Virus record (IMG/VR): IMGVR_UViG_3300025875_000091
Span: 1-24,357 of that record
DNA: 24,357 nucleotides
DNA from: a virus
Lineage: Duplodnaviria > Caudoviricetes
Strand: one strand, 5' to 3'
The notes under the pieces are model-generated. The model worked only from the letters and a program-made list of their open reading frames with translations, ran no database searches and was not told the DNA's origin. Position numbers and translations under genes: made by a program. Shown in pieces: positions 6,181 to 24,357 of this stretch (position 1 is the stretch's first letter; every line of letters starts with the position of its first letter).

Positions 6181-6304
6181 TGGAACTTTGTCCGTTTCGG
6201 CCTACCCTATGCCCGCCGTACGTCGTTCTCTTCTTAGAGTTGATCTTGAAAGAGAACACTCGTCGTGGGACGGCATAGGGTGGTCTGAAACGGACAAAGT
6301 TCCA
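6181..6304. repeat. Inverted-arm element, copy A (intergenic)
   Basis: Left arm tggaactttgtccgtttcggcctacccta (6181-6209) and right arm tagggtggtctgaaacggacaaagttcca (6276-6304), around a 66-bp core with an AT-rich centre. Both arms recur exactly at 22172-22200 and 22265-22293. Confidence 0.95.
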
Positions 6305-6309
6305 CGCCG

Positions 6310-6768
6310 TCAGTACGTGGCGACCGGCGTCCAGTTCAGTTCGAGATCGACGTCGTACCGCGCGAAGCCGCTCGGGTCGGGCACGCGGACGGGTTCGCTC
6401 ACCGGCCACACGCCGAGCACGAGCGCGGGCGCGTAGCTGCCCGTCGCGATGTTCACCTGCCGCGCCCACGCGCCGTGTCCGTCCGGTCCGTACGTCGCGC
6501 TGACGATCGTCTCGGCGAGTACGTTCGCCTCACCGAAGCGCGGCTTCTTCCCGCCCGCCGTCCAGCAGGAGACGCGCACCACGGGCCGACGAACAGGCAC
6601 GTAGACCTTCGGCGTCCCGCCCACGGTGAGCACCTGCACGAAGCCGTTCGGCCACTTCGTCACGTCGTCCGGCAGGGTCGTACCGATCTGCTCGCGCGGC
6701 AGCTTCTCGACGCCCTTCAGCCACGCGATCGCGACGAGTTCGGACGTCGGGCGGTTCGGCTCGCTCAC
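6310..6768 (-). CDS. Tail terminator protein
   Basis: 152 aa: ELVAIAWL...FVQVLTVGG...RPVVRVSCW...PVRVPDPSGFARY, resembling actinophage tail terminators. GTGA overlap with the upstream gene. Confidence 0.75.
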   Translation of the reverse strand: MSEPNRPTSELVAIAWLKGVEKLPREQIGTTLPDDVTKWPNGFVQVLTVGGTPKVYVPVRRPVVRVSCWTAGGKKPRFGEANVLAETIVSATYGPDGHGAWARQVNIATGSYAPALVLGVWPVSEPVRVPDPSGFARYDVDLELNWTPVATY

Positions 6769-7091
6769 TTCGTGACCCTCTTCAGCTCGACGATGCGGTC
6801 GCCGTGCATCACGCTCGCGCCCGGCTGCATCGGCACGTCGTCGACGGTGTACTCGTCGCCGGTCTGCTCGTTGATGACGCGGTCGCCCTGCTCGGCGTCG
6901 GTGCCGGGACGGAACCGCCCCGTGATCACGCGAACGATCATCATGTTGCCGCCGTCGCTGCGCATCCTGCTGCGCTCGGACAGCGCGCCCGGCACGCGCT
7001 CGATCACCTTCAGCGGCGCGTCGACCTCGTCGCCGAAGCTGTTCGTGCGACTGCCGCGCTCGAAGCGGTACGTACCGTCAGCGATGAACAT
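6765..7091 (-). CDS. Head-to-tail stopper (SPP1 gp16-like)
   Basis: 108 aa from ATG 7091 (TGATG overlap). Beta-rich with GDRVI...YTVD pattern. Follows the adaptor. Confidence 0.7.
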   Translation of the reverse strand: MFIADGTYRFERGSRTNSFGDEVDAPLKVIERVPGALSERSRMRSDGGNMMIVRVITGRFRPGTDAEQGDRVINEQTGDEYTVDDVPMQPGASVMHGDRIVELKRVTK

Positions 7092-7825
7092 CAGATGCGC
7101 CGTCCCCACGGGTGCGCGTCGGACACGACCGGGTCGACGATGCGCGGGCGCACCGTGCCGACGCTCACCGTCCGGTTGTTCGACCACGTCGCCCGACGCA
7201 GCGCGGCCTTCGCGAGCGGCGCGAGGATGAACGTCAGCTCGTCACGGGCGCTCGTCGAGCTGCCTTCCTGCGACAGCGACGTGACGTCGTGCCGGTCGAA
7301 CGTGTCGAACTGATCGCGCAGCCACGCCGCCTGATAGGCTGTCGCGAGCTTCAGCATCCGGCGGTTGCGCCGGTTCAGCTTCGTGATGTCGAGATCGGCA
7401 GCGCCGGTCACGGCGTCGATCGACGCGGCGGCGCGCTCGATGTCGTCGATGTCGACGACCTTGCCCGTCAGCGTCAGGACGTCCTGCGGCGTCGCCCACG
7501 ACGTACCGATCGAGAGAGAAGGCGACTTGACGTCGAACGTCAGCAGCGCGGCGCGCTCGCGCCTGCCGTCCGCGACGAGCACGACCTGAAGCGAGTAGCG
7601 CCCGGCGGTCAGGAACAGCGACCGATCCGTCGGCCACTCGAACGACACGGTCTCGTGCGTCATCGTGACGGCGACGCCCGTCGTGTCGATCGGCGCGCCC
7701 GCCGCGTCGTGCAGTTCGATGACGGCGTCGGTGTACGTCGACAGGTCGACAGCCTCGCCGTCGCGCGTGATCGTGACGTCGACGCCTTCCGTCGGCGTGT
7801 CGCCGACCCAATACGGACCGAGCAT
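7091..7825 (-). CDS. Head-to-tail adaptor with extra N-terminal Ig-like (BppU-N-like) domain
   Basis: The C-terminal ~140 aa (WATPQDV...RAAASID...LKLATAYQAAWL...LAPLAKAAL) match the gp6/gp15-type adaptor pattern. The N-terminal ~100 aa (VGDT...VDLS...VSFEW...AGRYSLQV) look like a beta-sandwich. AAGGAG SD. Confidence 0.7.
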   Translation of the reverse strand: MLGPYWVGDTPTEGVDVTITRDGEAVDLSTYTDAVIELHDAAGAPIDTTGVAVTMTHETVSFEWPTDRSLFLTAGRYSLQVVLVADGRRERAALLTFDVKSPSLSIGTSWATPQDVLTLTGKVVDIDDIERAAASIDAVTGAADLDITKLNRRNRRMLKLATAYQAAWLRDQFDTFDRHDVTSLSQEGSSTSARDELTFILAPLAKAALRRATWSNNRTVSVGTVRPRIVDPVVSDAHPWGRRI

Positions 7826-7854
7826 CGTCGTGTCTCCTTCAGTCGTCGATCATC

Positions 7855-7860
7855 AGGATA
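7855..7860 (-). promoter_or_regulatory. Putative -10 element TATCCT upstream of the adaptor gene
   Basis: TAnnnT hexamer in a 153-bp intergenic gap, ~30 nt before the ATG and upstream of the SD. Confidence 0.4.
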
Positions 7861-7978
7861 CCGCACGGGCCGACGGGCGTCTGACCTGCACGTTCGCCAC
7901 CATCTGCCCTGTGCCGCCCGATCTCGGGTCGGCCTATGTCCCTGTATCCCCGGAACCGGCACAGCGCCATACAGCGGG

Positions 7979-10198
7979 TCACTGTCCGTCACCGTTGATG
8001 ACGGCGCGTACCCGTCGTCGACCGAGCGTCGCGGACGCTGCACCGCGCGTCATCGAGACCGCCACACGCACCGCCGAGCGCCCGATGTCGGCGACTGCCG
8101 TCACCGGCGTGCGCTTGCGCAGCAGGTTGAACGACGTCGAGTTCGAGACCGTCGGCGCGAAGATGCGTACGCCGTACCGCTGCTCTTCGTGGTTGAAGAC
8201 GAGCGCGGCGACGCTGAACCGCTCCGTGCCGGGACGGTCGACGATGCGCCGACGCACGTACCACCCGCCCGACTCGCTGTGCTCGACGTCGATGCGGACG
8301 CCGTACAGCTCGTCGACGCTCGTGTGCGTGTCGATGCGCACGCCGTACCGCTCGCTGTGCTCGTCGGTGATCGCGCGCTTCACTGCCCACGTGGTGAAGT
8401 CGGGCGCGTCGACGATCCGGCGACGGACGCCGTACGTGTCGAGCGCGTCCTGCGCGATGGCGAGCGCCGCACGGTACAGATCGGACGCGCTCGCGTCGAC
8501 TGCCTGCGCCACGCGGAACGCCGTCGTGTTCGTGTCGACGATCGCGCGCTTCACCGGGTACGCTGTCGCACGTGTGTTCACGATGCGCTGACGTGCGTAC
8601 CAAGAAGTCGCGACCGCTGTCGAGACGATCGAGCGAACCGGCGAGACCGCCGACGCGGACGAACTGACGATCGCGCGCACGTCGAACGAGTCGCCGTCGT
8701 CGATGCGCATGTCGATCGGCACACGGTTGCCGTACTCGTCGCTGTGCTCGGCGTAGACGACGCGGGCGGCTTCGTAGTCGGTCGTCGTCGACTGCTCGAC
8801 GATCGCACGGGCGTACCACTCGTCGCCGGTGCTCGACTCCACTGCCAGCCGGACGCCGTACGTGTCCGCCTTCGGCACGTCGGCGATGCGGCGGCGCACG
8901 CCGTACGTGTTCGCACGGCTCGTGCTGATGATCCGGCGGACCGGGGCGGACGACGAGCGGGACGCGGTGACGATGGCGCGGACGTCGAACGACTCGTCGA
9001 CGCGGTTCGACGGGTAGAACGCGACGCGCCACGTGTCGCCCGTGCTGCTCTCGACGCCGACCCGCACGCCGTAGTCGGTCGCGTTGACCTGCTCGCCGAC
9101 CGCGACGCGGACGCCGTACAGCTCGCCGGTGTCGGTGCCGACGATGCGCCGCGCACCGAAGGTCGACGTGACCTGCGTCACGAGCTGGTCGGCGACCGCC
9201 CATGCCGTCGAGCGCCCTCCGGCGACCACGGCAGCGACGTCGTACGCCTGCCCGCCCTGCGCCCCGCTGACGCCCTGCCGGACGCCCCACGTACTCGACA
9301 GCCCGGCAGCAGCCATGGCGCGCCGGACGGCGTACACAGCGGCAGCCGACGCGGCAGGCGCGGCGACCCGGACACCGTGCGTCGTCGAGCGAGACGCGGC
9401 GACGATGTCGCGCACGCCGTAGTTCGTGGCGCGCGAGTTGTCGACCGGCGTCGTCGTCGGGAAGACTTCGTACGACGTGCTGATCGACGTCGAGACGCCG
9501 CCCGCCTTGCGAACGCCGTACGTCGTCGCCTGCCCGCGCTCGACGGGCTGCATCGTGCCGAAGAGAACGAACGCCGACTGCGAGTCGACTTCGCCTGCCG
9601 CGTTCGTGTACTGCCCGACGTTGCGCGCACCGCGCACGGTCGACGGGTAGATGACGCCCGTCGAGACCGTCAGACGTCCGCCGATGCGCGTGTACATCTG
9701 CTCGTACGACGGTCCGGCGGACTGATCAGCCGAGCGACCCGGCCAGTCGACGCCGTTCCATCCCGCCTTGATGAAGCACACGGCAGCGCGCGGCGGATCG
9801 GTCGGCGGCTGAATGTCGACGACGTTGATGCCGTTCACGTCGACGCGCGAGTCGACAGCGCCCCACCCGGACACGCCGCCGAAGCGGAAGATCGAGAACG
9901 CCCACGGAACCGTCGTGCTCGCGTTGTTCGTCGGCACCGTGACGCGGATCGTCCCGCCCGGCGAAGGCGACGAGATCGTGATGTCGGTCTGACAGTGTGA
10001 CGCGACCTGATACACGCCGGTGATGTACGCCCACGACAGACCGTCGGCGACGGGCGTGTACACGTTCTTAGACGTCGCGCCGGTCGCGTCGAGCACGACG
10101 AGACGGTCGCCCGGATCGGTCGGCACGTCGATGAACCGCGACTGCCCGTACCCCGCGCCGCTGTTGTACGTGCCCTTCCAGATCGGTTCGCTCGACAC
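7979..10198 (-). CDS. Repeat-containing putative virion fibre/ruler protein (739 aa)
   Basis: An N-terminal ~225-aa beta-rich domain, then ~32 tandem 14-17-aa repeats of consensus [YWF]-G/x-V-R-x-x-[VI]-x7, then a short basic beta-rich tail. Lies between capsid and adaptor genes. Confidence 0.65.
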   Translation of the reverse strand: MSSEPIWKGTYNSGAGYGQSRFIDVPTDPGDRLVVLDATGATSKNVYTPVADGLSWAYITGVYQVASHCQTDITISSPSPGGTIRVTVPTNNASTTVPWAFSIFRFGGVSGWGAVDSRVDVNGINVVDIQPPTDPPRAAVCFIKAGWNGVDWPGRSADQSAGPSYEQMYTRIGGRLTVSTGVIYPSTVRGARNVGQYTNAAGEVDSQSAFVLFGTMQPVERGQATTYGVRKAGGVSTSISTSYEVFPTTTPVDNSRATNYGVRDIVAASRSTTHGVRVAAPAASAAAVYAVRRAMAAAGLSSTWGVRQGVSGAQGGQAYDVAAVVAGGRSTAWAVADQLVTQVTSTFGARRIVGTDTGELYGVRVAVGEQVNATDYGVRVGVESSTGDTWRVAFYPSNRVDESFDVRAIVTASRSSSAPVRRIISTSRANTYGVRRRIADVPKADTYGVRLAVESSTGDEWYARAIVEQSTTTDYEAARVVYAEHSDEYGNRVPIDMRIDDGDSFDVRAIVSSSASAVSPVRSIVSTAVATSWYARQRIVNTRATAYPVKRAIVDTNTTAFRVAQAVDASASDLYRAALAIAQDALDTYGVRRRIVDAPDFTTWAVKRAITDEHSERYGVRIDTHTSVDELYGVRIDVEHSESGGWYVRRRIVDRPGTERFSVAALVFNHEEQRYGVRIFAPTVSNSTSFNLLRKRTPVTAVADIGRSAVRVAVSMTRGAASATLGRRRVRAVINGDGQ
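8132..9520 (-). repeat. Protein-level tandem repeat array (~32 units, mostly 14-15 aa)
   Basis: Examples: YGVRDIVAASRSTT, YGVRVGVESSTGDT, FDVRAIVTASRSSS, YGVRLAVESSTGDE, WYARAIVEQSTTTD, YGVRIDTHTSVDEL. Confidence 0.9.
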
Positions 10199-10217
10199 GT
10201 ACCTAGCCTCTCATGCA

Positions 10218-10254
10218 GAACGGGACGCCGCCCACGAAGGGCAGCGCCCCGTTC
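10218..10254 (-). terminator. Hairpin after the 180-aa gene (terminator/attenuator)
   Basis: Minus-strand RNA GAACGGGGCGCUGCCC-UUCGU-GGGCGGCGUCCCGUUC: a 16-bp stem with two G.U pairs that form only on the transcribed strand. Confidence 0.7.
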
Positions 10255-10269
10255 AGGGTCGGAGCGGGA

Positions 10270-10812
10270 TCAGGCAGCCGTGTCGCCCGCGACGGAGACG
10301 GTGAAGCCGTCCGCGTCGATCGGCGCGCTGTTCTTCGCCGTACGGCGGACCCACACGGCGCGGACCTGACCGGGTCCGATGTTGCCGAGCGCCAGCCCTG
10401 CGGCCTTCGTGGTCGGCGTGCCGAACGCGCCGACGCTCGACGGGGCGGTCGTCTGCGACGCGATCGTCGCAGCCTGCGCCGCCGTGGCACCCTTCGCCAC
10501 CGGGCCGACGTTGTCGACCGCGATCGCGATGTCGGCACCGCCCGCGACTTCGGCGCTGACGTACACGACAGCCGCTTCGAGCGTCAGGCTCGCGTGGTTG
10601 TTGAGCACGAAGAAGCACCGGTAGTCGACCGTCGACGCCGCGTTCTCGTCGCCGGTGATGTTGTCGAACAGCGTGTTCGTGCCCGCCGCCCATGCGGTCG
10701 TCGACACGTACTTGCCGAGCGAGTTGTTCGGGTTCGCCTGCGCGGTCGTGTCGCCCGCCGAACCGGCGGTCGTCGACAGCCTGAAGACGATGTCGGATGC
10801 TGCGATCGCCAT
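10270..10812 (-). CDS. Putative structural beta-sandwich protein (180 aa; fibre/decoration subunit candidate)
   Basis: Ala/Thr/Gly-rich: YRCFFVLNNHASLTL...LGNIGPGQVRAVWVRRT. TGATG overlap with the upstream gene and a strong hairpin downstream. Confidence 0.6.
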   Translation of the reverse strand: MAIAASDIVFRLSTTAGSAGDTTAQANPNNSLGKYVSTTAWAAGTNTLFDNITGDENAASTVDYRCFFVLNNHASLTLEAAVVYVSAEVAGGADIAIAVDNVGPVAKGATAAQAATIASQTTAPSSVGAFGTPTTKAAGLALGNIGPGQVRAVWVRRTAKNSAPIDADGFTVSVAGDTAA

Positions 10813-11276
10813 CAGACGTCACCCTTCTTCGCGTTCTTCGGCGCGGGCGAACCGGTCGTCGGCGTCTTCGGGGCGGACGTGTCGACGTCCTTCCCGTCCG
10901 CCGTCTTCGCCGGGTCGCCGACGTTCTCGACGTCCTCGCCGGTCGCCGTCTGCTCCGGCGCGACCGCGACGGCGTCACCGTCGGTGGGCGCGGCGACGAT
11001 GACGGGCAGCGAGTAGACGAGCCGCACGTTCCGCTTGTCGACCTTCACCTGCTCGATCAGCGACGGGTTCCCGGTCGGGCGCATCCCGCGCTGCATGGCG
11101 GTCTGCCGCATGTCGGCGTACTGCCGCTCGACGAGTTCGGTCGGCACGTCCTTGTCGGCGTCGTCGACGAACGCGAGGTAGTCCTTCACGAACGTGCTCG
11201 CGCTCGCGCTGTCCCGCACGTTCGGGACGGTACGCAGCTCGACCTCGCTCGCTTCCTTCGGGGCGGTCTTCGCCAC
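10812..11276 (-). CDS. Hypothetical protein (154 aa, low-complexity C-terminus)
   Basis: GTG at 11276 with GAGAGG SD. First gene after the capsid hairpin. Confidence 0.7.
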   Translation of the reverse strand: MAKTAPKEASEVELRTVPNVRDSASASTFVKDYLAFVDDADKDVPTELVERQYADMRQTAMQRGMRPTGNPSLIEQVKVDKRNVRLVYSLPVIVAAPTDGDAVAVAPEQTATGEDVENVGDPAKTADGKDVDTSAPKTPTTGSPAPKNAKKGDV

Positions 11277-11308
11277 TGTCTGATCCTCTCTCGGGTGAAC
11301 GGGTTGAA

Positions 11309-11338
11309 GCGGGGCGGCGACCGAAGTCACCGCCCCGC
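11309..11338 (-). terminator. Hairpin after the major capsid gene
   Basis: Minus strand GCGGGGCGGUGAC-UUCG-GUCGCCGCCCCGC: a 13-bp stem with a C(UUCG)G tetraloop, 7 nt after the stop. Confidence 0.75.
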
Positions 11339-11345
11339 GTCAGGA

Positions 11346-12269
11346 TCAGCCAGCGGCGGCGGCGGTGATCTCGATCATCGCTGCGGCCTTCGGGTGCGCG
11401 AGCACGTAGCCGCGCCGCGAACGCGCCTTGATCAGCGCCTCGTCGGTGAGCGCCGACGCGCCGGTGAAGCCGTTCACGACGGCGAACTCGGGACCGGACC
11501 GGATGCCGAGCACCGAGAACCCACGGTTGAAGACGGCGAGCAGCGGGTTGCCGGAACCCGCCGGGCCGACGCGCACGTCGGTGCCCGTCTTCAGACCGGC
11601 GGACCACCGCACGCTGTAGCCGAACAGCGTGTCGGGCGTGGTGCCGTTCCCTTCCATCAGGATCGGGCGACCGGTGTCGTCCTTCAGCCCACGGAACAGA
11701 CCCTTGAAGATCGGGTGCGCCGCGACGGCGAGCTGATCGAAGTAGTCGTCGTTCTCGACGATGCCGATCACGTCGGACAGGTCGTCGTACGACAGGTCAC
11801 CGGCGGTCTGCATCAGGTTCGCACCGGCGGTGTAGCCGACGCTCGCGTCGGCCTGCGACAGCGCCCGGTACATGGACGTGAACGGGACGGCGAGACCGTC
11901 CTCCGCTGCGGTGTTCGCGAAGACGGAGAAGTCGAGACGGCGCGCGTAGGTCGACGCCCACGCGAGCTGCTTCTGCGCGACGATGTCGCGCGGGATGTCC
12001 TCGATGTCCTCGTCGGCGATGCGCAGCAGACCGGTGAACTTCCGGGCGCGCAGCGTGACCTCGTCGTCGGTGTTGTCGTTCTCCGTGTACGCGGTGCCCT
12101 TCGGGGTGACCGCCACGTCGACGCCGCCGTCACGCGGGATGGACTTCGTGTCGCTGCCCATCGGCTCGCGACGGCACAGCGCCTCCGCCGCGCTCGTGTT
12201 CTGGACGGCGAGCAGGACGTCGGAACCCTTCTCTTCGGGAATCCAGACGTCGAGATTGGTACGCGCCAC
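11346..12269 (-). CDS. Major capsid protein (HK97 fold)
   Basis: WIPEE...EVTLRARKFTGLLRIADEDIED...GLKDDTGRPI...TLFGYSV...HPKAAAMI. GTG at 12269 lies 8 nt after AAGGAG. Follows the scaffold. Confidence 0.92.
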   Translation of the reverse strand: MARTNLDVWIPEEKGSDVLLAVQNTSAAEALCRREPMGSDTKSIPRDGGVDVAVTPKGTAYTENDNTDDEVTLRARKFTGLLRIADEDIEDIPRDIVAQKQLAWASTYARRLDFSVFANTAAEDGLAVPFTSMYRALSQADASVGYTAGANLMQTAGDLSYDDLSDVIGIVENDDYFDQLAVAAHPIFKGLFRGLKDDTGRPILMEGNGTTPDTLFGYSVRWSAGLKTGTDVRVGPAGSGNPLLAVFNRGFSVLGIRSGPEFAVVNGFTGASALTDEALIKARSRRGYVLAHPKAAAMIEITAAAAG

Positions 12270-12310
12270 GATTGGCACTCCTTCACATCAGGGACGGTGG
12301 TCGGCCCGTC

Positions 12311-12346
12311 GCGGGCGCACGCCTACAAGATAGCACGTGCGCCCGC
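12311..12346 (-). promoter_or_regulatory. Extended -10 (TGcTATCTT) in the loop of an 11-bp perfect inverted repeat upstream of the capsid gene
   Basis: gcgggcgcacg-cctacaagatagca-cgtgcgcccgc. The minus strand reads TG-C-TATCTT at 12335-12327. Confidence 0.55.
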
Positions 12347-12360
12347 AACGGTGCCAGCCG

Positions 12361-13056
12361 TCAGCCCTTCCCGGTGAGCCGGGCGGCGAGACGGTCGGCG
12401 CTCGACTTCGGGCGGTTGTCGGTCCGCTCGCGCCGACCACCGTCACCGCTGCCGGGCGCACGCCGACGGCGCGGACGGTCGTCGTCGTCCTTCTTCGACG
12501 TGCCGAACAGCTCTTCGTACTCGTCCTTCAGCTCGTCGATCTGATCGTCGAGACCGTCGACGTCGCCGTCGTCGTCGATGTCGACGTCGTCGAAGTCGAT
12601 GCGCCCGACGAGCAGCGCGGCGTTCTTCGCCGACGCACCGGCAGCGAGCAGCGCGGCCTTCGCCGACGACTTCTTCAGCGCGAGTTCCCGCTTCGCGATC
12701 TTCGCGTCGCTCTCGACGCGGTCGTCGTCGTCGTCCTCGTCGTCGTCCTTGCCGCGCTTCGACTTCGGCTTCTTCGCCGTGGCGGCGGCGAGCTGCCGAC
12801 GCAGTTCCCGGTTCGTCCGGCGCTCGGCGCGCAGCGCCTTCATGCCCTTCTCGCCGAGTTCTTCGTCGTCCTCGTCGTCGTCGTCCTTGTCGTCGTCGTC
12901 GCTGTCGTCGTCGTCCGACTCGTCGTCGTCGTCGTCGTCCGCGTCGTCGTCCGACAGGTCGATGTCGTCGTCGTCGGCGTCCTCGTCGTCGGACGCCTTG
13001 CCGCGCTTCTTCGTGGTCGGCTTCTTCAGCTCGTCCATCAGGGTGCGCTTCGCCAT
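12361..13056 (-). CDS. Capsid scaffolding protein
   Basis: 231 aa with a very acidic N-terminus and coiled-coil LGEKGMKALRAERR, ...LDDQIDELKDEYEELF. Directly upstream of the capsid gene. Confidence 0.85.
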   Translation of the reverse strand: MAKRTLMDELKKPTTKKRGKASDDEDADDDDIDLSDDDADDDDDDESDDDDSDDDDKDDDDEDDEELGEKGMKALRAERRTNRELRRQLAAATAKKPKSKRGKDDDEDDDDDRVESDAKIAKRELALKKSSAKAALLAAGASAKNAALLVGRIDFDDVDIDDDGDVDGLDDQIDELKDEYEELFGTSKKDDDDRPRRRRAPGSGDGGRRERTDNRPKSSADRLAARLTGKG

Positions 13057-13101
13057 GATCAGTGATGCCTTTCGTCAGCCGGTCGCCTCGCGCGTCCGGT
13101 C

Positions 13102-13116
13102 GTGTACACCTTACAC
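13102..13116 (-). promoter_or_regulatory. Putative -10 (GTG-TAAGGT-GTACAC) for the scaffold/capsid genes
   Basis: 14/15 identical to 16258-16272. Intergenic, upstream of the GAAAGG SD of the scaffold. Confidence 0.6.
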
Positions 13117-15624: not shown

Positions 15625-15631
15625 GCCCTGT

Positions 15632-15637: not shown

Positions 15638-15642
15638 CCTCA

Positions 15643-15675: not shown

Positions 15676-15684
15676 CTGTGAAGG

Positions 15685-15888: not shown

Positions 15889-16256
15889 CAGCGGATCACG
15901 ATCGGGGCGACGGCGGCACCGAGCGACATCGCGGCGAGAATGGCAGCCGCGCGACGCTGACCGGTCGGGACGGCACCGGGGCGACCGTGAAGCGTGGTCG
16001 TCGGCGCGCCGGGAACCGGCGGCAGCATCGGCTCGCCCATGTACGTCGGGATGCGCACGGTGTCGTCGGCGGGCGGCGTGAACGTCGCGTCGCCGAGCAG
16101 GTCGCGCAGCGCGTCGGGCGACAGACCGTCGGCGTCCTCGCGCATGGCGCGGGCGAAGCCACGGTTGAAGTCGCGGACGTTCTGCGCGGTGATCTCCGGC
16201 AGCTCGGCGGTCGCGGTGCGGTCGGTCATGTCGATGATGTTCGTCTGCGTGGTCAT
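15888..16256 (-). CDS. Hypothetical protein with C-terminal hydrophobic anchor (122 aa)
   Basis: ATG 16256 (MTTQTNIID) lies 7 nt after a -10. Ends RRAAAILAAMSLGAAVAPIVIR. Confidence 0.65.
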   Translation of the reverse strand: MTTQTNIIDMTDRTATAELPEITAQNVRDFNRGFARAMREDADGLSPDALRDLLGDATFTPPADDTVRIPTYMGEPMLPPVPGAPTTTLHGRPGAVPTGQRRAAAILAAMSLGAAVAPIVIR

Positions 16257-16257
16257 G

Positions 16258-16272
16258 GTGTACAGCTTACAC
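16258..16272 (-). promoter_or_regulatory. -10 GTG-TAAGCT overlapping the terminase stop; leaderless
   Basis: TAAGCT-gtacacc-ATG. The TAA is the terminase stop codon. Confidence 0.6.
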
Positions 16273-17748
16273 ATACGACGACGTTCGCGCACCACCCTGC
16301 GGCGCGGCGCGCCGTGGTCCGAGAAAGTAGATCAGCGCGGTGCCGACGCTGTCGACCATGTCGTCGTGCGGTGCCTTCGGGAACGCGATCTGCTGTTCTT
16401 CGAGACGATCGAGCCGCTTCGCGTGCAGGACGCGCCCGCGCTGATAGTGCGTGTGCGCCTGCGACGCGCGCAGTTCCTTCTTCAGCGCGTTGTGCTTCGA
16501 CTTGATCTTCACGGGCAGGTGGTGAAGAACCGTCTCCCATACCTCGCCGCCCTGATTGCTCTCGATCAAGATCAAGCCGACTTCGGGGAACGTGTCGAGC
16601 AGTTGAAGCACAAGCTCGCGCAGACCGTCGCCCTTCACCTTGACTTCGGTCGCATAGTGGACGACTGCCTTCGTCCCATCGCGCCGACAGCTCACGACCG
16701 ACACACCGGTGAAGTCGCTCGACTTCTTCGTCGTCACGGCAGGGTCGATCGAGATCAACCACCGGTGCGGCTGTCCCTCGTCGGTGCCGTACTGATAGTC
16801 GTCAGCGGACCAGTACGCGCCGTTGATGCCGCGCGGGTCGTTCGCGTAGTTCTTCGCGAAGCTCGCCGTGTGCCGGATCGAGCGCAGGAAGTCGAGCGAC
16901 CATCGGCCCGGCCACACGCTGCGCTCTTCGCCCGTACTTTCGTCTGTGACGATAGGCGGGTAGTAGTGGCACTTGACCTTCTCGTCGACGATCCACTGTT
17001 CAGGCGCGCCGGTCTCGCGCACGGACCGCACGAGCTGATGAACGATCGAGCCGGGCATCGTGACCGTGCCCGCGATGACGACTCGCGCGTTGATGTTCAG
17101 CGGGAAGATCGCGTCGGTGAGCGTGCCGAGCCGCTTCTTCGCAAGGTCGGCGCTGTACGACGACTCGTCCGGCTCGATGTCGTCGAAGATCAGCAGGTCG
17201 GGCCGACGCTCGCCGACCTTCATGCCGAGCGACGACGAGTCGATGCCACGGGCGGCGAACACGAACCCGCTCGACGTGAACAGCATCGCGCGGTTGTCAG
17301 CGACCTGCGTACCGCGCGGACGGCGGGCGGGCGCGACGAGATCGGGGAAGTCAGCGCGCAGCTTCTCGTTCGTGTCAAGCTCGTGCTTGAACGTCTGAAG
17401 GTGCGCTTCGGCCTGCGACGCGCTGTCAGCGAACGCGGCGGCGAACTTGACGTATCCGAAGGCAGCCGCCCACATCGGCAGGATCAGGAACCACCACGTC
17501 GACTTGCCCATCGAGCGCGGCGCGACGAACGCATCGCGGTGCTGCATCGGCTCGCCGATCGGCAGCATCCACGACTTAGCGTGCTCGCACCACGAATGGT
17601 GAACTTCGCTGAACGTCATCTCGCCGCCGGTCTCTTCAGACCGGAGATGGTGCGACAGGTAGATGCGCGCGAACGCCATCGGGTCGGAGATCGACGCGGC
17701 CTTACGGTTCCATCCGACGGAGCGATCCGCGCGGTACTCGAACGTCAC
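16267..17748 (-). CDS. terL: Terminase large subunit
   Basis: Walker A APRSMGKST, Walker B LLIFDDIE, nuclease motifs IDPA..DFTG and HDDMVD. GTG at 17748 in a GTGA overlap with the DUF1353 stop. Confidence 0.93.
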   Translation of the reverse strand: MTFEYRADRSVGWNRKAASISDPMAFARIYLSHHLRSEETGGEMTFSEVHHSWCEHAKSWMLPIGEPMQHRDAFVAPRSMGKSTWWFLILPMWAAAFGYVKFAAAFADSASQAEAHLQTFKHELDTNEKLRADFPDLVAPARRPRGTQVADNRAMLFTSSGFVFAARGIDSSSLGMKVGERRPDLLIFDDIEPDESSYSADLAKKRLGTLTDAIFPLNINARVVIAGTVTMPGSIVHQLVRSVRETGAPEQWIVDEKVKCHYYPPIVTDESTGEERSVWPGRWSLDFLRSIRHTASFAKNYANDPRGINGAYWSADDYQYGTDEGQPHRWLISIDPAVTTKKSSDFTGVSVVSCRRDGTKAVVHYATEVKVKGDGLRELVLQLLDTFPEVGLILIESNQGGEVWETVLHHLPVKIKSKHNALKKELRASQAHTHYQRGRVLHAKRLDRLEEQQIAFPKAPHDDMVDSVGTALIYFLGPRRAAPQGGARTSSYV

Positions 17749-18206
17749 AGCAGCCACGCGAGCAGCGCCCACGCGATCGCGACGAACGGCGACAGGACGA
17801 CGGCGAGCATCGGCAGGTCGCGCACGATGCCGGACGGGCGGCGCTGCTCGCTGAACGGGGCGGCGACGCGGACCGCTGCCCACATCAGCCACCGGCGGAC
17901 GAAGCCGGTTCCCTCTTCGCGCAGGACGCGGCGGAACAGACCGTCACAGTCGCGCGACGTCACGAGACCGAGCGCGATGCCGTGCGTGATCAGCCAGTCG
18001 TGCAGGACGGCGGCGAGCGTCCACACGCCGGTGCGCGGCACGAACCACTGAAGGAACCACGGCACCGACGCGAAGTCGGTCACGTAGCCGACCGGGACGA
18101 CGAACGTCTGCCGCTCGCCGTGGTACGTCAGGTCGTGCTCGCGCAGCGCCCACCGGATCGGGTCGACGCGGCGGACCGTGAACAGGTCCGGGTTACTGAA
18201 CGGCAT
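17745..18206 (-). CDS. DUF1353-family protein with C-terminal TM segment
   Basis: VPVGYVTDFASVP...AAVLHDWL...CDGLFRRVL...MWAAVR motifs. Confidence 0.85.
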   Translation of the reverse strand: MPFSNPDLFTVRRVDPIRWALREHDLTYHGERQTFVVPVGYVTDFASVPWFLQWFVPRTGVWTLAAVLHDWLITHGIALGLVTSRDCDGLFRRVLREEGTGFVRRWLMWAAVRVAAPFSEQRRPSGIVRDLPMLAVVLSPFVAIAWALLAWLL

Positions 18207-18729
18207 CGGTCTTCGTCGCCTCTCGTGCGGCAGCCGCCGCGCGCTGCTCGGCGATCATCTCGGCAAGCTCGGCGTCTTCGCCGTCCTGCACGGTGACCGT
18301 CACGTCGGACCGCACGGGCGCGTCGGTGCCGTTCAGCTTCGCCCGGCGCTCGTCGAGCCGGAGCAGGGTCGCCACGGTCTGCCGACGCTCGGCGAGCAGG
18401 GACGCAGCGAGCGACATCGGGACGTCGGGCGTCGTCAGCATCGCGTCGAGCGCGTCAATCTGCTGACGCAGCATCGTCTCGCGCTGATCGAGCGTGTCGT
18501 TCTGCACGCGCCGGTACTCGTCGACGGTGGGAGGGATGCGGGCGTCGAGCGCGATCTTCATGTACCGGTTTGCCGTGTCCTCGCTGATCTTCAGATCGGC
18601 GACGATCTCGTACATGCGCTCGCCCCGCGTGCGACGGCGAAGAATCTCTTCGCCCATCGAGCGACGGTCGTCGCGACCACGCCCGCTGTGCCGCTTCGAT
18701 GTCGAGCCGATCACCACGTCGCTACTCAT
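18193..18729 (-). CDS. terS: Terminase small subunit (HTH-containing)
   Basis: HTH MYEIVADLKISEDTANRYM, helical body, ERRAKLNGTDAP motif. Upstream of terL with a GGAGG SD. Confidence 0.75.
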   Translation of the reverse strand: MSSDVVIGSTSKRHSGRGRDDRRSMGEEILRRRTRGERMYEIVADLKISEDTANRYMKIALDARIPPTVDEYRRVQNDTLDQRETMLRQQIDALDAMLTTPDVPMSLAASLLAERRQTVATLLRLDERRAKLNGTDAPVRSDVTVTVQDGEDAELAEMIAEQRAAAAAREATKTDAVQ

Positions 18730-18758
18730 GCCCGCATCCCTCCCCGCACTTCATGTTC

Positions 18759-18845
18759 TTACTTGCTCGCCTTGACCACGCACCACACGATGAAACCGCA
18801 CAGCACCATGAACGCGATCTGCACCGCTGCGTCTGCCCAACCCAT
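18759..18845 (-). CDS. 28-aa single-TM peptide
   Basis: MGWADAAVQIAFMVLCGFIVWCVVKASK. TAATG overlap and strong GGGAGGT SD. Confidence 0.6.
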   Translation of the reverse strand: MGWADAAVQIAFMVLCGFIVWCVVKASK

Positions 18846-19087
18846 TACGTCGTACCTCCCTTCCCGTATCGGTCGGCGTACCACGCGCGAACGGCGGTCA
18901 TCGAGTAGACCGGACCCATCGCGAGCGTTTCGAGCGGGGCGGGGAAACCCGACGCAGCGCGTCGCGCTGCCCACATCGAAACCGTCGTGCGCGGCACGCC
19001 GAGCGTGTCGGCGATCTCGGCAACGCCGACGAGGTCGCGTACGGCGGCGTTGAACTCCTGCCGCTGTGCGGCATCGTCAGTCGTCAT
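18845..19087 (-). CDS. AlpA/excisionase-like HTH DNA-binding protein
   Basis: LVGVAEIADTLGVPRTTVSMW...FPAP...GPVY...VRAW. Confidence 0.85.
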   Translation of the reverse strand: MTTDDAAQRQEFNAAVRDLVGVAEIADTLGVPRTTVSMWAARRAASGFPAPLETLAMGPVYSMTAVRAWYADRYGKGGTT

Positions 19088-19586
19088 GGTGACCACTGTA
19101 CACGCCTACGGGCGGCGGGACCACTCCGGCGCGACGGGACGGCCAGTCACGCAGGTACCCCGCCATGCGCTCGAAGGCAGCCGGGTCGTCGCGGTAGTGA
19201 CCGAGCGTCCGGTTGCACGTGTCGCACAGCAGACCGCGCACGCACTTCCCGCACGACGTCGGACCGGGACAGCAGGCGTGGTCATGGTCGACGGCGAGCC
19301 GCTTCGTCGCGCCCGTGGCGCGGCGGCAGCCGAAGCACCGCCCCGCCTGCGCACGGTACATCGCGTCGTACTGCTCTTCGCTGATGCTGTACGTCGCTTC
19401 GACGCGGCGCGCCTTCGACTTCTTCTTCGCCGCCTTGCGCGCGCTGATGTCGTCGCTGTAGCAGCGGGGACCGGGAAACGGGGCGGGACGAGTCAGCGGA
19501 CGCCCGGCAGCCTTGCAGTCGACACACTCTCGACCCGGCGTCGGCGCACGCTTCGCGTACTGCCACTTGTCGTTAGAAGAGGTCAT
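19077..19586 (-). CDS. Endonuclease VII-family nuclease (resolvase-like)
   Basis: YSISEEQYDAM..AQAGRCFGC...LAVDHDH...VRGLLCDTCNRTLG. Confidence 0.9.
   Translation of the reverse strand: MTSSNDKWQYAKRAPTPGRECVDCKAAGRPLTRPAPFPGPRCYSDDISARKAAKKKSKARRVEATYSISEEQYDAMYRAQAGRCFGCRRATGATKRLAVDHDHACCPGPTSCGKCVRGLLCDTCNRTLGHYRDDPAAFERMAGYLRDWPSRRAGVVPPPVGVYSGHHDD
19095..19103 (-). promoter_or_regulatory. -10 GTG-TACAGT, leaderless start of the HTH gene
   Basis: TACAGT-ggtcacc-ATG, 7-nt spacing, no SD. Confidence 0.6.
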
Positions 19587-19755
19587 CGGGCGCGCCCTCC
19601 GTCATCTTCCCTTCGCGAGCCGCCGCGTCGTTCAGGCACCGCGCGTGCGACAGGTTGCCGCCGTCGTCGTACCCGATCGTGTCGCCCTCGTCGAAGGCGA
19701 ACCCGCAGTCGTCGCACTCCCCGGCGTACCGCGCCGTGAACGTCCTCGTCGTCAC
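19573..19755 (-). CDS. Small zinc-finger-like protein (60 aa)
   Basis: ARYAGECDDC...HARC. GTGA overlap and AAGGAG SD. Confidence 0.7.
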   Translation of the reverse strand: MTTRTFTARYAGECDDCGFAFDEGDTIGYDDGGNLSHARCLNDAAAREGKMTEGAPDDLF

Positions 19756-19886
19756 TGTCCCTGCTCCTTCTTCGGCTCGACCTTGATCGAGTACGTCACC
19801 GTGCCGCTGTTGCGGGACGGCATCGACTGACGGACGGACACGCGCCCGTCGAGCACCGCCTGTGCCAGCTCTTCGAGCGCGCTCAC
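19752..19886 (-). CDS. Hypothetical protein (44 aa)
   Basis: GTG 19886 in a GTGA overlap with the polymerase stop. Begins MSALEELAQAVLDG and fills the gap exactly. Confidence 0.55.
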   Translation of the reverse strand: MSALEELAQAVLDGRVSVRQSMPSRNSGTVTYSIKVEPKKEQGQ

Positions 19887-21760
19887 GACTTCCCCTTCGC
19901 GATCTTCTCGGCGACGTCGCCCGGCATCCACCGGCTGACGCCCTGCTCGTCGACCAACCGTACCGCGCTCGCCGTGATCGGCACGCCCATGAAGTCGAGC
20001 GTCATCGCGCGTTCGGCGTCGGCGATGATCTGCGCTGCCTGCTCGCCGGTCGGCACCTGAAGCACGAGTTCGTCGTGAACCGGCCACCACACGACGCCGT
20101 CGTGACCGAAGTCGACGGCGAAGCGGTGCCACGCATCGACGAGCAGTTCACGCGCGCTCGACTGCACGAGGTAGTTCACGTTCGCGTACGACCGGACGTC
20201 GCCCGTCTTCCGGTTCACCGTGACGGGCAGGCGACGACCGGAGATCGTGCGAACCTCGTCCTTCATGCCTGACATGTAGATCGTCAGCGCGTTGATCGCG
20301 GGGTACCGCTCTCGGATGCCGTAGACGACTTCAGCGGCGATGTCGAGCGGGATGCCTGCCTGCTCGGCGAGCGCCTTCGGACCGCCGCCGTAGACGATCA
20401 GGAAGTTCGCCATCTTGCCGACCTGACGAGAGATCGTGACGCCCATCGCTGCCAGCTCGTCGACGGTGAGCTGATGCAGGTCACCACCGGCGAGAATCGT
20501 TTCGATCATCTTCTCTTCGCGAGCGAGACCGGCGACGACGCGAAGCTCGACCTGATCGAAGTCGATCGTCCACAGCTCGTGACCGGGATCGGGCAGGAAC
20601 ATGCCGCGCATACGCCGGTCGGTCTTCGACATGTTCTGAAGGTTCGGCCCGCTCGACGACATACGCGCCGTCGTCGTCGCGCCGACCGGGTTCAGCAGCG
20701 GGTGAATCCGACCGTCGACGATGCGCGCCGAGATGCCTTCGCACTTGTTCAGCAGATCGAGCGACCGGCGGAACTTGATCAGCGCGTCGAAGACGGCGCG
20801 ACCCTGCTCGTCGAGCGGGAAGTCACCGATCAGCTTCACGTTCTCCTTCGCGAGCGACGGCGTGCCCTTCGGCGTGAGCGCGCCCGTCCAGTCGTCCCAC
20901 TCGACGCCGTGCTCGCCGAACCATCCCTGCAACTTCGGCGAGCGCAGCGTGATGCCGCCCGTGATCTCCTTCGCCACACGCTCGGCGTCGCCGGTCTCGG
21001 CGCGGGCGTAGGCGAGAAGACTGTTCAGCTCGTTCTCGTCGACACGCAGCCCGCGTGCCTGAATCCGGTTGCAGGTGGCGGCAAGCCACTGCTCGATGCG
21101 CAGCAGCTCGGCGGGTGCCTGCGTGGCGGGGATCAGCAGCGGCAGCAGGCGACGACACACGATCGCATCCTTGCCTGCGTAGATGAAGAAGCGGTCGGGC
21201 AGCTCGTCGACGGGCAGCGACGCGAGCGCGTCCCACCCTACCTGCTCGATGTGCGCCTTCGCCGCGTTCTTGCGACCGCCCGCGTCGACCCACCGCGCCT
21301 GCATCCATGCGTACAGCGACTCGTCGTCCTGACGCAGCTCGTCCATGCCGTACAGCGTGCCGAGCGTCTTCAGGTCGCGGTCGTTGTCCTTGTCCGGGTC
21401 CGCCATGATGGCGAGCGCCCGCGTGTCGATGTTGCGGTCGGCGATGTCGATCCCGAACTCGGCGAGCACCGACAGCACGTCCATGTTCGTGTGCGAGCAG
21501 AACGAGAACGCCGTGTCGGTCAGGATGCCCGCCGCCGTGGCGCGCTGCGCCGGGTCGGTGACGTCGAGAACCCACGCTTCCTGTTCCGTGGCGAACTGCA
21601 CCGTGCGCACCTTGAACGCCGGGTCGAACTGCGCGCGGTCGGTGAGGTACGTCGACTCGACGTCCAGACCGAGCACGCCGGGCGCGGGCATCGGCCCGAA
21701 GTCAGGTCCGACGTGAACGAGCACGTCCTGACCGCCGACGGTCGTCGTGTATGTCTCCAT
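19883..21760 (-). CDS. polA: DNA polymerase family A (3'-5' exonuclease + polymerase; no 5' nuclease)
   Basis: ExoI LDVES, ExoIII YAGKD, TTARMSSSGPNLQN, motif A DFDQVELR, motif B RQVGKMANFLIVYG, motif C VHDEL. ATG 21760 lies 8 nt after AAGGAG. Confidence 0.95.
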   Translation of the reverse strand: METYTTTVGGQDVLVHVGPDFGPMPAPGVLGLDVESTYLTDRAQFDPAFKVRTVQFATEQEAWVLDVTDPAQRATAAGILTDTAFSFCSHTNMDVLSVLAEFGIDIADRNIDTRALAIMADPDKDNDRDLKTLGTLYGMDELRQDDESLYAWMQARWVDAGGRKNAAKAHIEQVGWDALASLPVDELPDRFFIYAGKDAIVCRRLLPLLIPATQAPAELLRIEQWLAATCNRIQARGLRVDENELNSLLAYARAETGDAERVAKEITGGITLRSPKLQGWFGEHGVEWDDWTGALTPKGTPSLAKENVKLIGDFPLDEQGRAVFDALIKFRRSLDLLNKCEGISARIVDGRIHPLLNPVGATTTARMSSSGPNLQNMSKTDRRMRGMFLPDPGHELWTIDFDQVELRVVAGLAREEKMIETILAGGDLHQLTVDELAAMGVTISRQVGKMANFLIVYGGGPKALAEQAGIPLDIAAEVVYGIRERYPAINALTIYMSGMKDEVRTISGRRLPVTVNRKTGDVRSYANVNYLVQSSARELLVDAWHRFAVDFGHDGVVWWPVHDELVLQVPTGEQAAQIIADAERAMTLDFMGVPITASAVRLVDEQGVSRWMPGDVAEKIAKGKS

Positions 21761-21762
21761 CG

Positions 21763-21951
21763 TCACAGCTCCTTGATCCGCTCGTACACCGTCACCACGC
21801 CGACACCGAGACCGCAGCCGAGCGCGTCGACCCACCACGGCGACGACGTGTAGTCCGTCCACGCGAGCAGCACGCCGAACCAGAACGCGGCGAGCGCCCA
21901 CACCGCGACGAACAGCGCGACCGTGATCGCGACCTTCTTCAGCTTGTCCAT
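21763..21951 (-). CDS. Small two-TM membrane protein (62 aa)
   Basis: MDKLKKVAITVALFVAVWALAAFWFGVLLAW...WWVDALGCGLGVGVVTVY. Confidence 0.75.
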   Translation of the reverse strand: MDKLKKVAITVALFVAVWALAAFWFGVLLAWTDYTSSPWWVDALGCGLGVGVVTVYERIKEL

Positions 21952-21957
21952 GTGACC

Positions 21958-21966
21958 ATCATACAC
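21958..21966 (-). promoter_or_regulatory. -10 GTG-TATGAT, leaderless
   Basis: TATGAT-ggtcac-ATG, 6-nt spacing, intergenic. Confidence 0.65.
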
Positions 21967-22022
21967 CACCTTGACCGACGGGGCGGGGCGCAGGTGCCGA
22001 CGCAGCTTCGCGCGTGTCGCGC

Positions 22023-24357
22023 TCACGACGTGCGCTCGAAGGTCGCGGGCGTGCAGTGGCGGCAGGCGCGCCAGAACATCGCGGGCGGCACGAGGTCGCG
22101 CGGCTCGTCGCAGTCCGGGCACAGGTCGACCGGCGGCTGCTGCGCGAGGTCCGTCAGCAGGCTGTCGATCATGGAACTTTGTCCGTTTCGGCCTACCCTA
22201 CTGACTTCCAGGGTGGACACTTCTTCAGTGATCTTGTTCGGAAGAACATCGTTCCCGACGGGCGTAGGGTGGTCTGAAACGGACAAAGTTCCATCCTCCG
22301 GCGACTTAGTACCCGGTCCGGTCTCGGAACTGCCGACGTCCGGCCCGTCCCCGCCCGCCCCGGTCGACCACTCACTGCGCGGCTTCACGCGCAGGTTCCA
22401 TCCCCGCGACTTGCCGCTGCTGACCATCTCGACGACGCCGGGCACCATGCGCAGCCGATCGCGCACCTTCCCCTTCGCCATCGGCGTACGGCCCTCGTCG
22501 TCCGTCCAGTTGCGGAACGCGGTGTACAGCTCCGACGTCGTGCTCGCCGTCGAGTTCTCGACGATCTCGCAGCACTCGGCGACGAAGGCGCGGACGCGGT
22601 CAGACGCCTGCTCGAACTTCTCGCGCACGGCGGCGTTCGTGTCGAGCGCCTTCCCGCGCTCCGTCCGCCGCTGCCACGCCTTGACCCACCGCACGAGGAT
22701 GCCGGGCAGCTCTTCACGCAGGCGCGGTTCGAGCGTGTGATCCTCGCGCCCCGCGAACGAGTTCGGGAACAAGAACGGCTTGATGCGCTCGCTGTAGGCG
22801 CGGGACGACTCGCCGACCGTGGGCAGCTCGTTCGCGCTGAAGGCGAACAGCGCCCGGTTCGTGAACGCGAACTGCGAGCCGTACTTCCGGTTCGCCTGAA
22901 TCAAGTCTTCGCCGGTCATCAGCTTGAACATCGAGATGTCGTCGACGTGCGCGGCCTTCAGGTCGGCGGACACGTTCAGCGCCTTGCCGTACACGTTCGC
23001 AGCGGCGAAGCGGTCTTCGGCGAGCGCGTGCAGGCTGACGGCGCTCGTGTTCTCGTCGCCCGCGACGTCCTGCATCAGACGCAGGAACGTCGACTTGCCG
23101 GACCGCGACGGGCCGAACAGGAACACAGCCTTCGTGGGCGTCTGCGACGGGTCGATCATCATCGCGACCGACTCTTCGAGATCGTCGAGCTGATCGCCGA
23201 TCTGTTCCTTCGCCCACTGCTCGTAGGTCGGCGCGGTCGCGTTCGGGTCGTAGTCGACCGGGAACTGCACGCTCGACCGGTACTTCGGGTCGTGTGCCAG
23301 CAGCTCGCCGGTACGCAGGTCGACCATCCCGTTCCGGCAGTTCATCAGCGGCTCGTCGACGCGGTCGGTCAGGTAGTTGCCCGCCGCTGCCAGCCGACCG
23401 ACGGCGAACATCTCGGCGTTCGTCAGGTGCGACGACCGGAAGTCCTCGCCGAGCAGGTTCGTGACGGTCGACAGGAAACCCTTCCCGTCGATGCGGTACA
23501 CGCCGTCGATGTACAGCGCGATCTTGTCTTCGCGCGTGAGCGCAGCGGGCTGCGCGCCGACGACGTGCTCGGCGAGCGTCTGCACCTTCAACTTCTCGCC
23601 GTCGAAGAACGGCGAGCCGTCGCCGTCGTCGCTCGACTTCTTCGCCTTCGGCTTCGTCGCGGCGGGCAGCTCCGGCTTCTCGCTCTTCGGGCGGTTGCGC
23701 GTGAGTTCGATCAGCCGCGTGAGGTACTTCGTCCGGCGCTCCGGCGTCTCGGACGCGAGCACGTCGTCGAGACCGGTGCTCTTCGTGCCGGGCACGCGGA
23801 CGAAGCGGACGCTCTCGGCACCCTGCGCGATGCACGCTTCACGGAGCTGCACGCCTGCCGTGTAGACGTTCAGGTTCGACGCGGCGTCGGCGTCGAGCAC
23901 GATGAACACGTCGCGCCCGTCGACGACGGCGAGATCGCGCGTCGGCACGCCGCGCTTCATCCACGACTGCGCACCGGCGATGCCGTAGACGCTGAAGCCG
24001 ATCGGCGCGTACATCGACGCCGCGATCGTCTGACAGGTGCCTTCGACGATCATCACGGGCGCGTCGTCGTCGCCGACGCGAGCCGCGTTCAGGATCGACG
24101 GCGCGTCCTTCTCGAAGACGTACTTCTTCGTGTCGCCGTCGTACAGCACCGGCGTGTCGGGCCGAAGCTGATGCGTGACGGTCTCACCGTCCGGGGACCG
24201 GTACGGGAAGAGCAGTCCGGGCAGGTATCCGTTCGCCTGCGTCCAGTAGTCCGGCAGCCCGGCGGGCATGTCGGCGTCGGTCGCGATCGGGATCACGCCG
24301 AACTCGGCGGCAGCTTCGGCGGTGATGGCGCGCTTCGCGAGCGCGGTCACCTGCTCG
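22023..24357 (-). CDS. DNA primase-helicase (TOPRIM/DUF3854-like + D5-N + SF3 helicase, P4-alpha-type C-terminus); 5' end probably outside the window
   Basis: TOPRIM-like IVEG...LDAD, D5-N NCRNGMVDLRTGELLAHDP, Walker A GPSRSGKST, FKLMTGED..ANRKY..FSANELP, C-terminal CxxC...CxxC. The frame is open to the window edge. Confidence 0.92.
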   Translation of the reverse strand, partial: EQVTALAKRAITAEAAAEFGVIPIATDADMPAGLPDYWTQANGYLPGLLFPYRSPDGETVTHQLRPDTPVLYDGDTKKYVFEKDAPSILNAARVGDDDAPVMIVEGTCQTIAASMYAPIGFSVYGIAGAQSWMKRGVPTRDLAVVDGRDVFIVLDADAASNLNVYTAGVQLREACIAQGAESVRFVRVPGTKSTGLDDVLASETPERRTKYLTRLIELTRNRPKSEKPELPAATKPKAKKSSDDGDGSPFFDGEKLKVQTLAEHVVGAQPAALTREDKIALYIDGVYRIDGKGFLSTVTNLLGEDFRSSHLTNAEMFAVGRLAAAGNYLTDRVDEPLMNCRNGMVDLRTGELLAHDPKYRSSVQFPVDYDPNATAPTYEQWAKEQIGDQLDDLEESVAMMIDPSQTPTKAVFLFGPSRSGKSTFLRLMQDVAGDENTSAVSLHALAEDRFAAANVYGKALNVSADLKAAHVDDISMFKLMTGEDLIQANRKYGSQFAFTNRALFAFSANELPTVGESSRAYSERIKPFLFPNSFAGREDHTLEPRLREELPGILVRWVKAWQRRTERGKALDTNAAVREKFEQASDRVRAFVAECCEIVENSTASTTSELYTAFRNWTDDEGRTPMAKGKVRDRLRMVPGVVEMVSSGKSRGWNLRVKPRSEWSTGAGGDGPDVGSSETGPGTKSPEDGTLSVSDHPTPVGNDVLPNKITEEVSTLEVSRVGRNGQSSMIDSLLTDLAQQPPVDLCPDCDEPRDLVPPAMFWRACRHCTPATFERTS
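22172..22293. repeat. Inverted-arm element, copy B (inside the primase-helicase ORF)
   Basis: Same 29-bp left and right arms as 6181-6304, in the same orientation, around a 64-bp core. Confidence 0.95.

Follow-up and report, generated by a model that had tools for sequence, protein, structure and literature searches.

Phage P4 relies on two sites in cis, ori1 and crr, which are unlike each other in layout and are both needed. The site crr is named in PMC9942202, and another source ascribes a winged helix to the P4 alpha protein and describes for pRN1 an origin element of about 100 bp, with a 21-nt stem and a 58-nt loop, located 3' of the rep gene for ORF904, in which a PrimPol, a helicase of the SF3 type and a winged helix are joined (PMC4234260). 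In the same source, this element is required, still works after being moved and differs in sequence from one relative to another, and an origin of its type has also been proposed for Bordetella phage BIP-1 (PMC4234260). The SaPI origin is formed by facing iterons around an AT-rich centre and is bound by a winged helix (PMC9371898; bioRxiv 10.64898/2026.10.17.759575), with background on Rep and PriRep5 of SaPIs given elsewhere (PMC7581432); the several origins of T4 have no sequence motif in common and depend largely on R-loops (PMC3016281). The subject of the present analysis is a palindromic element found twice, as copies A and B, in positions 1 to 24,357 of the tailed-phage record IMGVR_UViG_3300025875_000091 (Duplodnaviria; Caudoviricetes), hereafter the window. 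B lies inside a gene for a primase-helicase of the P4-alpha/PriRep kind, and the element is compared below with these four systems.

When the two copies are laid side by side, both 29-bp arms prove identical, including the same three left/right differences; the copies start 15,991 bp apart, and their cores, 66 bp in A and 64 bp in B, share a set of ordered words. All of this, coordinates included, bears out the original prediction, as does the failure to find a target-site duplication in the flanks of A or B. The 11/33 GC once attributed to the centre of A belongs to its lowest-GC 33-mer, at 6226, the value for the exact centre being 12/33. Among all 122-mers of the window, A and B are the two richest in AT, a 17-mer of the arm occurs four times in it (up to 3 mismatches allowed) against a mean of 0.01 in shuffles, and the element has a strong predicted fold (z -6 to -10). 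A contig from run X1 covers A (5969-7122) with no differences, although X1 is possibly the source sample and thus not independent. The record is 68% GC, and its recognisable genes, which include those for the primase-helicase, PolA, endonuclease VII, terminase, portal, capsid and tail, all lie on the minus strand. For the primase, the nearest cultured matches are Woodruffvirus Streptomyces phages (42–47% identity); those of terminase and portal are phages of Microbacterium and Streptomyces. From these an actinobacterial host is inferred.

The protein that encloses B was modelled with AlphaFold at a mean predicted local distance difference test (pLDDT) score of 86.6. Its helicase is of the SF3/D5 type and is followed by a C-terminal winged helix, an arrangement expected of a pRN1-type initiator; at the N-terminus, where an archaeo-eukaryotic primase-polymerase domain was looked for, only DUF3854 was found, below its cut-off. 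Foldseek gives SaPI5 PriRep (7OLA) as the best structural match (E 1.8e-20), which is also the sole sequence match in the PDB. In the model, the domain that precedes the linker is a winged helix and, folded alone, its top match by VIA-align is the origin-binding domain of phage P4 (1KA8; Z 9.0, root-mean-square deviation 2.6, 79 aligned residues); it is predicted to be the origin-binding domain here as well. For this domain, Pox_D5 was found in 22 of 54 family members. The codons of B are read through in frame as a linker with pLDDT below 50, between the compact domain and the CxxC..CxxC tail, and only 23 of these 42 codons end in G or C, versus 603/645 between amino acids (aa) 16 and 660. Many primases of the family are fused to a family A DNA polymerase, giving proteins of about 1,310–1,350 aa (e.g., P0028, P0030 and P0068).

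The association between palindrome and primase is not confined to the window. An alignment of 43 homologues served as the starting point; with it, 38 viral loci, 80 metagenomic ones and 17 genomic ones were fetched, and 83 were kept, the window and a close relative included, after loci with less than 34% identity, truncated loci and duplicates had been dropped. Within 420 bp after the winged-helix codons, 49 of the 83 have a palindrome of 95–256 bp scoring at least 14, whereas control windows inside the helicase have one in 0/83; of the 34 loci without a 3' palindrome, 13, mostly Woodruffvirus-like, have a strong one upstream of the gene. The core has a GC fraction of 0.50 against 0.66 for the locus, and is the lower of the two in 45 of the 49 elements. 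In 35/49 a tandem 5-mer with a period of 8–10 opens the arms, a repeat no longer present in the lineage of the window. The window's wing motif and the peptide encoded by the arm occur together in 15 of 120 protein homologues, the other 105 having neither, and the right arm is translated as GQSS in five of the 15 and as TK[FL][QH] in ten, that is, in two frames of the same DNA; this frame switch was inferred from protein only, with patterns written after the sequences had been seen, and the 15 are probably one clade and the switch one event. Since the right arm is read in two frames and the third codon positions of B are so poor in GC, the constraint would seem to act on the DNA rather than on the peptide.

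A role as packaging site was also considered and rejected as unlikely, since the element goes with the primase rather than with terminase and portal: OscarSo, which has a related terminase and portal and no match to this primase, carries no such palindrome pair. At 43 of 45 tail-terminator loci, where the primase type is mostly unidentified, there is no nearby palindrome at a score of at least 16. BLASTN of A against a phage collection and of B against a plasmid collection gave no match, and Rfam gave 0 matches on the window. Three arm-pattern scans of viral contigs each recovered the two loci of the close relative: the first gave three loci in all, the third being a lone arm; the second gave 21, of which the other 19 were unlike the element, one being a low-GC tandem repeat; the third gave 32, of which the other 30 had no primase match and included one low-GC perfect palindrome of different sequence. 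Two contigs of run X4 leave the right arm of B at 22293, and what follows there does not resemble the primase gene; this hints weakly at an A-type copy in a further relative and is not used as evidence.

Compared with the described systems, the element comes near to pRN1 in being a sequence of about 100 bp 3' of the helicase coding region with a long stem, a loop of about 58 nt, no iteron array and a shape that is kept while the sequence varies; B has arms of 29–31 bp and a core of 62–64 bp some 70 bp past the winged-helix codons, and thus forms the stem-loop expected of such an origin. It differs in that the pRN1 element is single, lies outside the gene and goes with an archaeo-eukaryotic primase, whereas here it sits inside the open reading frame (ORF), the primase region is DUF3854-like and a second copy occurs 16 kb away. 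With the SaPIs it shares an SF3 primase-helicase with a C-terminal winged helix (7OLA being the best match) and, downstream of the helicase, opposed sites flanking an AT-rich centre, as in SaPI/PICI origins; the SaPI origin, in contrast, is single, about 300 bp long and made of 6–12 short iterons, whereas this element is 122 bp long, has one long arm on each side without two or more short iterons per side, and is present twice. The likeness to P4 lies in the primase-helicase, a similar origin-binding fold (1KA8) and two separated cis sites; unlike those of P4, the copies here are equivalent palindromes and not two unlike sites, and most relatives have a single copy. As in T4, there are several candidate origins, those of T4 being active in a circularly permuted genome, but in the present case the copies are homologous and linked to a single initiator.

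Further information comes from the close relative, G027 (L001/L003), of 35,196 bp with a 127-bp terminal repeat, which is about 84% identical to the window and whose completeness is estimated by CheckV at 58% although it is classed as having direct terminal repeats. Window and relative are collinear across both elements, with both copies at matching sites (the relative's A at L001 6613-6734). When the eight half-elements of the two genomes are read from the outside in, the outer 18 bp are common to all, positions 19-29 are partly conserved and positions 30-46 are variable; non-coding A keeps 36/36 outer arm bases between the two genomes. The three left/right asymmetries, which the original prediction had correctly noted in both copies of the window, are not kept in the relative's A copy and are thus not fixed. 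In the relative, A-left is the reverse complement of B-right at 45/46 bases, which on sequence grounds is read as gene conversion between the copies.

Copy number was surveyed in 22 of the 38 viral records, fetched whole; the remainder comprised G027, nine short contigs, three copies of cultured-type genomes and three distant matches. One copy was found in 17 of the 22 and two or three in the other five; among the ten records at least 90% complete, six, the records of 89 and 93 kb among them, are single-copy and four multi-copy. Two chromosomal regions of 78.5 kb have one copy each. Cultured Woodruffviruses, examined whole (Salete, phiSAJS1, Mischief19) or over their first 50 kb (YDN12, Xkcd426), have three evenly spread, lineage-specific copies of roughly 180–330 bp in 5/5 cases, situated upstream of the primase gene, before the portal region and among the head-tail genes; three copies are also present in G019 and G021, and in these seven triple-copy genomes the largest gap is 22–25 kb (each P 0.007–0.049, not independent). 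For 16 of 21 copies the best match lies inside the same genome, and the five exceptions fall within the close pair Salete/YDN12. In quick trees, the multi-copy label has to change three to four times, and a single clade of multi-copy rows is rejected (approximately unbiased test, p-AU 0.002) on 22 of 31 rows, nine gappy, long or near-duplicate ones having been dropped and G010 relabelled multi-copy on account of the apparent breaks of its contig at element sites. The simplest reading of these trees is three gains, in the window's lineage, in G011 and in the Woodruffviruses, though one gain followed by many losses may also account for them.

A few of these genomes show further peculiarities at or near element sites. 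The G010 contig is apparently broken at two of them, each end (L193 start, L195 end) carrying an imperfect inverted repeat of about 29 bp where copies are expected, and the third site of G014 is apparently near contig ends. The second copy of G011 is preceded by two extra arm-like repeats (1452-1816). In phiSAJS1 (L031; L245 5138-7674) the tape-measure and major-tail/adaptor blocks are swapped relative to Salete (L007), Mischief19, G019 and G021, and both swapped blocks end at or near a palindrome.

Taken together, A and B represent, each in full, a single palindromic element that goes along with the primase-helicase family. The palindrome follows the winged-helix codons family-wide and resembles the pRN1 and SaPI origins, which makes B the likely primary origin; that B is a replication origin at all is, by this analogy, probable. 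A, which keeps the whole geometry of two arms and an AT-rich core, is rather more tentatively taken, on the same analogy, for a duplicated second origin, on the far side of the genome, that fires independently, a role to which we give somewhat better than even odds. On the model of pRN1, SaPI and P4, binding by the winged helix would take place at the outer 18 bp of each arm, which are invariant, and on either side one hexamer would load, the two facing each other; then the AT-richer core would melt and be primed by the primase domain, with extension in both directions by the phage PolA or by host polymerases. Duplication into the late operon, at a place of shuffled gene order, would have given rise to A, and selection together with gene conversion with B would keep it matched to its cognate helicase; the likely benefit would be replication tracts that are shorter, or an internal origin that can be used on circularly permuted DNA. 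The suggestion in the original prediction of head-to-head, origin-like sites tied to the primase-helicase has thus gained weight from the family-wide palindrome, the modelled P4-like domain and the pRN1/SaPI-like anatomy, as has that of a duplicated origin, with binding and firing of the sites being predicted.

A first rival reading holds that B is the sole working origin, A being a passenger duplicate that does not fire and is kept similar by gene conversion. The tract shared by B-right and A-left in the relative would suit this, and so would the predominance of single-copy records and the absence of one site from G015; however, A has kept both outer arms intact in two genomes despite the drift of its core, extra copies occur in at least three lineages, and in the Woodruffviruses these persist at the same sites though the element sequences no longer align with one another, for which reasons we consider it unlikely. 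It is likewise rather unlikely that A is a regulatory binding site for the primase-helicase, acting without initiation by titration, as a roadblock or by coupling late transcription to replication: A does interrupt the late operon beside a promoter-like motif, and extra copies often adjoin reverse-strand genes, but its full geometry is more than a binding site needs and the pRN1 element acts as an origin when relocated (PMC4234260). The original prediction had also drawn a parallel with P4, in which A and B would be obligatory parts of one origin, like ori1 and crr. This is very unlikely despite the P4-alpha-like protein with its similar winged helix and the two sites in cis, since most relatives, the near-complete ones included, are single-copy, copy number ranges from 1 to 3, and A and B are equivalent, complete and symmetric palindromes whereas ori1 and crr differ in layout.

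The remaining explanations, which the original prediction had also named, receive little support. That A and B are recombination sites inverting or excising the 16-kb segment, for instance for amplification as by Flp/FRT in the yeast 2-micron plasmid, could draw on the inverted-orientation sequence exchange in the relative and on the gene-order changes at element sites here and in phiSAJS1, and yet seems scarcely probable. No tyrosine recombinase, resolvase or protelomerase domain (PF00589, PF00239, PF16684) was found in either of two records, G027 and G011, although host enzymes or unlisted families may act; window and relative are collinear over both sites; an inversion would cut the tail operon in two and exchange the tail of the primase; and single-copy genomes dominate. 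Recombination and hairpin-telomere sites have a short spacer or a perfect central palindrome, in contrast to the cores of 58–66 bp with imperfect centres in the window and its relative. A search for junctions of excision or inversion found no A–B joint among the joints listed from four contig runs, which is no evidence of absence, since rare variants are lost in contigs. A miniature inverted-repeat transposable element (MITE) or a structured RNA is the least probable of all, in spite of the terminal inverted repeats and the strong predicted fold. The element has a fixed position in the family and, as said, no target duplication; one arm match with one mismatch (G147) turned up in a sample of 401 actinobacterial genomes that may not include the host, against three control matches; and the phage, plasmid and Rfam searches were empty. 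Arm mismatches across the family elements are A-C in 44 cases versus G-T in 23 on the sense strand, a bias that would favour wobble pairs on the antisense strand (nominal p 0.014, the loci not being independent), but 78/145 arm mismatches cannot wobble.

Several observations nevertheless weigh against the origin reading, or at least against parts of it. Single copies suffice in records of 89 and 93 kb, G015 lacks one of three sites, leaving a gap of 34 kb, and G011 has a gap of 37 kb, so that a need for fixed spacing is not apparent; the P values of the triple-copy genomes are not independent because these genomes share ancestral sites; and on the 35,069-bp circle of G027, where the copies are 16.1 and 19.0 kb apart, the spacing alone is not significant (P 0.08 versus random). 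Gene conversion alone could have preserved the arms of A, given the tract of 45/46 bases, and the 117-bp flank of A is also well conserved in the relative. At the protein level, the 1KA8 match is tied with RFX (8.7), winged-helix matches being common, and Foldseek of the winged helix ranks LOTUS first, with RFX and Orc1 lower and 1KA8 not among the matches listed. The synonymous constraint that the original prediction had proposed looking for in B points the right way without reaching significance (1/35 changes versus 76/562, p 0.07). At the thresholds used, a strong palindrome is missing from both the 3' and the upstream position at 21/83 loci (10 of them untestable upstream), several of which show weaker arms by eye, L040 and L046 being counted as primary elements in the copy-number survey; the window arms have no tandem 5-mer at period 8–10, so that iterons in the SaPI sense are not evident; and base skew (GC and AT), another check proposed at the outset, tracks transcription and is uninformative on origins. 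A hard replication-length limit of 20–25 kb was rejected as a general rule, the 89- and 93-kb records being single-copy.

A single palindrome of origin-like form next to a primase-helicase of the D5/P4 type represents a known design; what is new is the multiplied, homogenised form of the element, with several complete copies spread on a phage circle of 35–68 kb in at least three lineages. Multi-origin arrangements are otherwise familiar from archaeal and eukaryotic chromosomes. That such chromosomes have evolved repeatedly in small actinophages, with two to three homologous, evenly spread origins of a self-loading helicase, all firing and matched by gene conversion, is an idea to which we give slightly less than even credence. 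In a literature search covering few subscription papers, no description of several homologous complete copies was found; the announcement of cluster BG says nothing of repeats (PMC5511901), and neither 'repeat' nor 'palindrom' occurs in the main text of the Geonosis paper (PMC11536984). Candidate origins can thus be named for a large actinophage family that includes cultured Streptomyces phages, in which tests by deletion, by minireplicon and on nascent strands are routine. Many natural pairs of arm and winged helix are also available within the family, among them one clade of 15 with distinct wing and arm, for the study of DNA recognition by self-loading helicases, and possibly compatible replicons for actinomycetes.

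Table 1. Features of the window discussed in the text, with their positions and the basis of assignment.
Feature	Position	Strand	Basis or remark
Copy A	6181-6304 (124 bp)	.	Imperfect palindrome, intergenic in late operon; AT-richer core between arms of 29-33 bp, whose outer 18 bp are invariant; likely second origin
Copy B	22172-22293 (122 bp)	.	Palindrome inside primase-helicase ORF (aa 686-727); likely primary origin
P4-alpha/PriRep-like primase-helicase, 775 aa	22023..24350	-	Domain matches, structure model; order: DUF3854 (below cut-off), D5_N, DUF5906 helicase region, winged helix, linker, CxxC..CxxC tail
Predicted origin-binding domain, a winged helix (aa 572-662)	22365..22637	-	Structure comparison
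CxxC..CxxC C-terminal motif, after B	22053..22121	-	Present in many homologues
DNA polymerase, family A	19883..21901	-	Domain match
Tail terminator gene	6310..6768	-	Ends 5 bp before A
HK97-gp10-like gene	5788..6063	-	Here after tail terminator and A
Promoter-like motif TGCTGTACA	6128..6136	-	Between A and gp10-like gene; function predicted

The surroundings of A were compared with related tail-terminator loci, gathered by an alignment-based scan, a single-protein scan having given nothing. Of 25 related loci with a match, 24 have the gp10-like gene before the tail terminator; the window and G027 have it after the terminator, beyond A. The motif TGCTGTACA is conserved in G027, where it also occurs twice in the early region; a scan for sigma-70 promoters and terminators around A gave nothing. 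Beside A, G027 has an extra gene (L001 6041-6562, minus strand) that is absent from the window: it belongs to phrog_636, a group without assigned function, its product has a C-terminal CxxC..C motif, and it is provided with a leaderless promoter-like motif. Because gene order has changed around gp10, the relative has an extra reverse-strand gene and the promoter-like motif is present, A would mark an insertion accompanied by local rearrangement.

Elsewhere in the window, a minus-strand ORF of 739 aa (7979-10198) has degenerate internal repeats and no match in Pfam or PHROG. Promoter-like words stand in the loops of GC-rich hairpins at 12311-12346 of the window and at L003 2965-3007 and L003 4142-4178 of the relative. 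Finally, a perfect 15-bp inverted repeat (GGGAGGGATGCGGGC) at 18529-18744 pairs the start region of a small-terminase-like gene (18193-18729) with a site inside the same gene, and the same repeat pair is found in the relative (L003 13505-13720).

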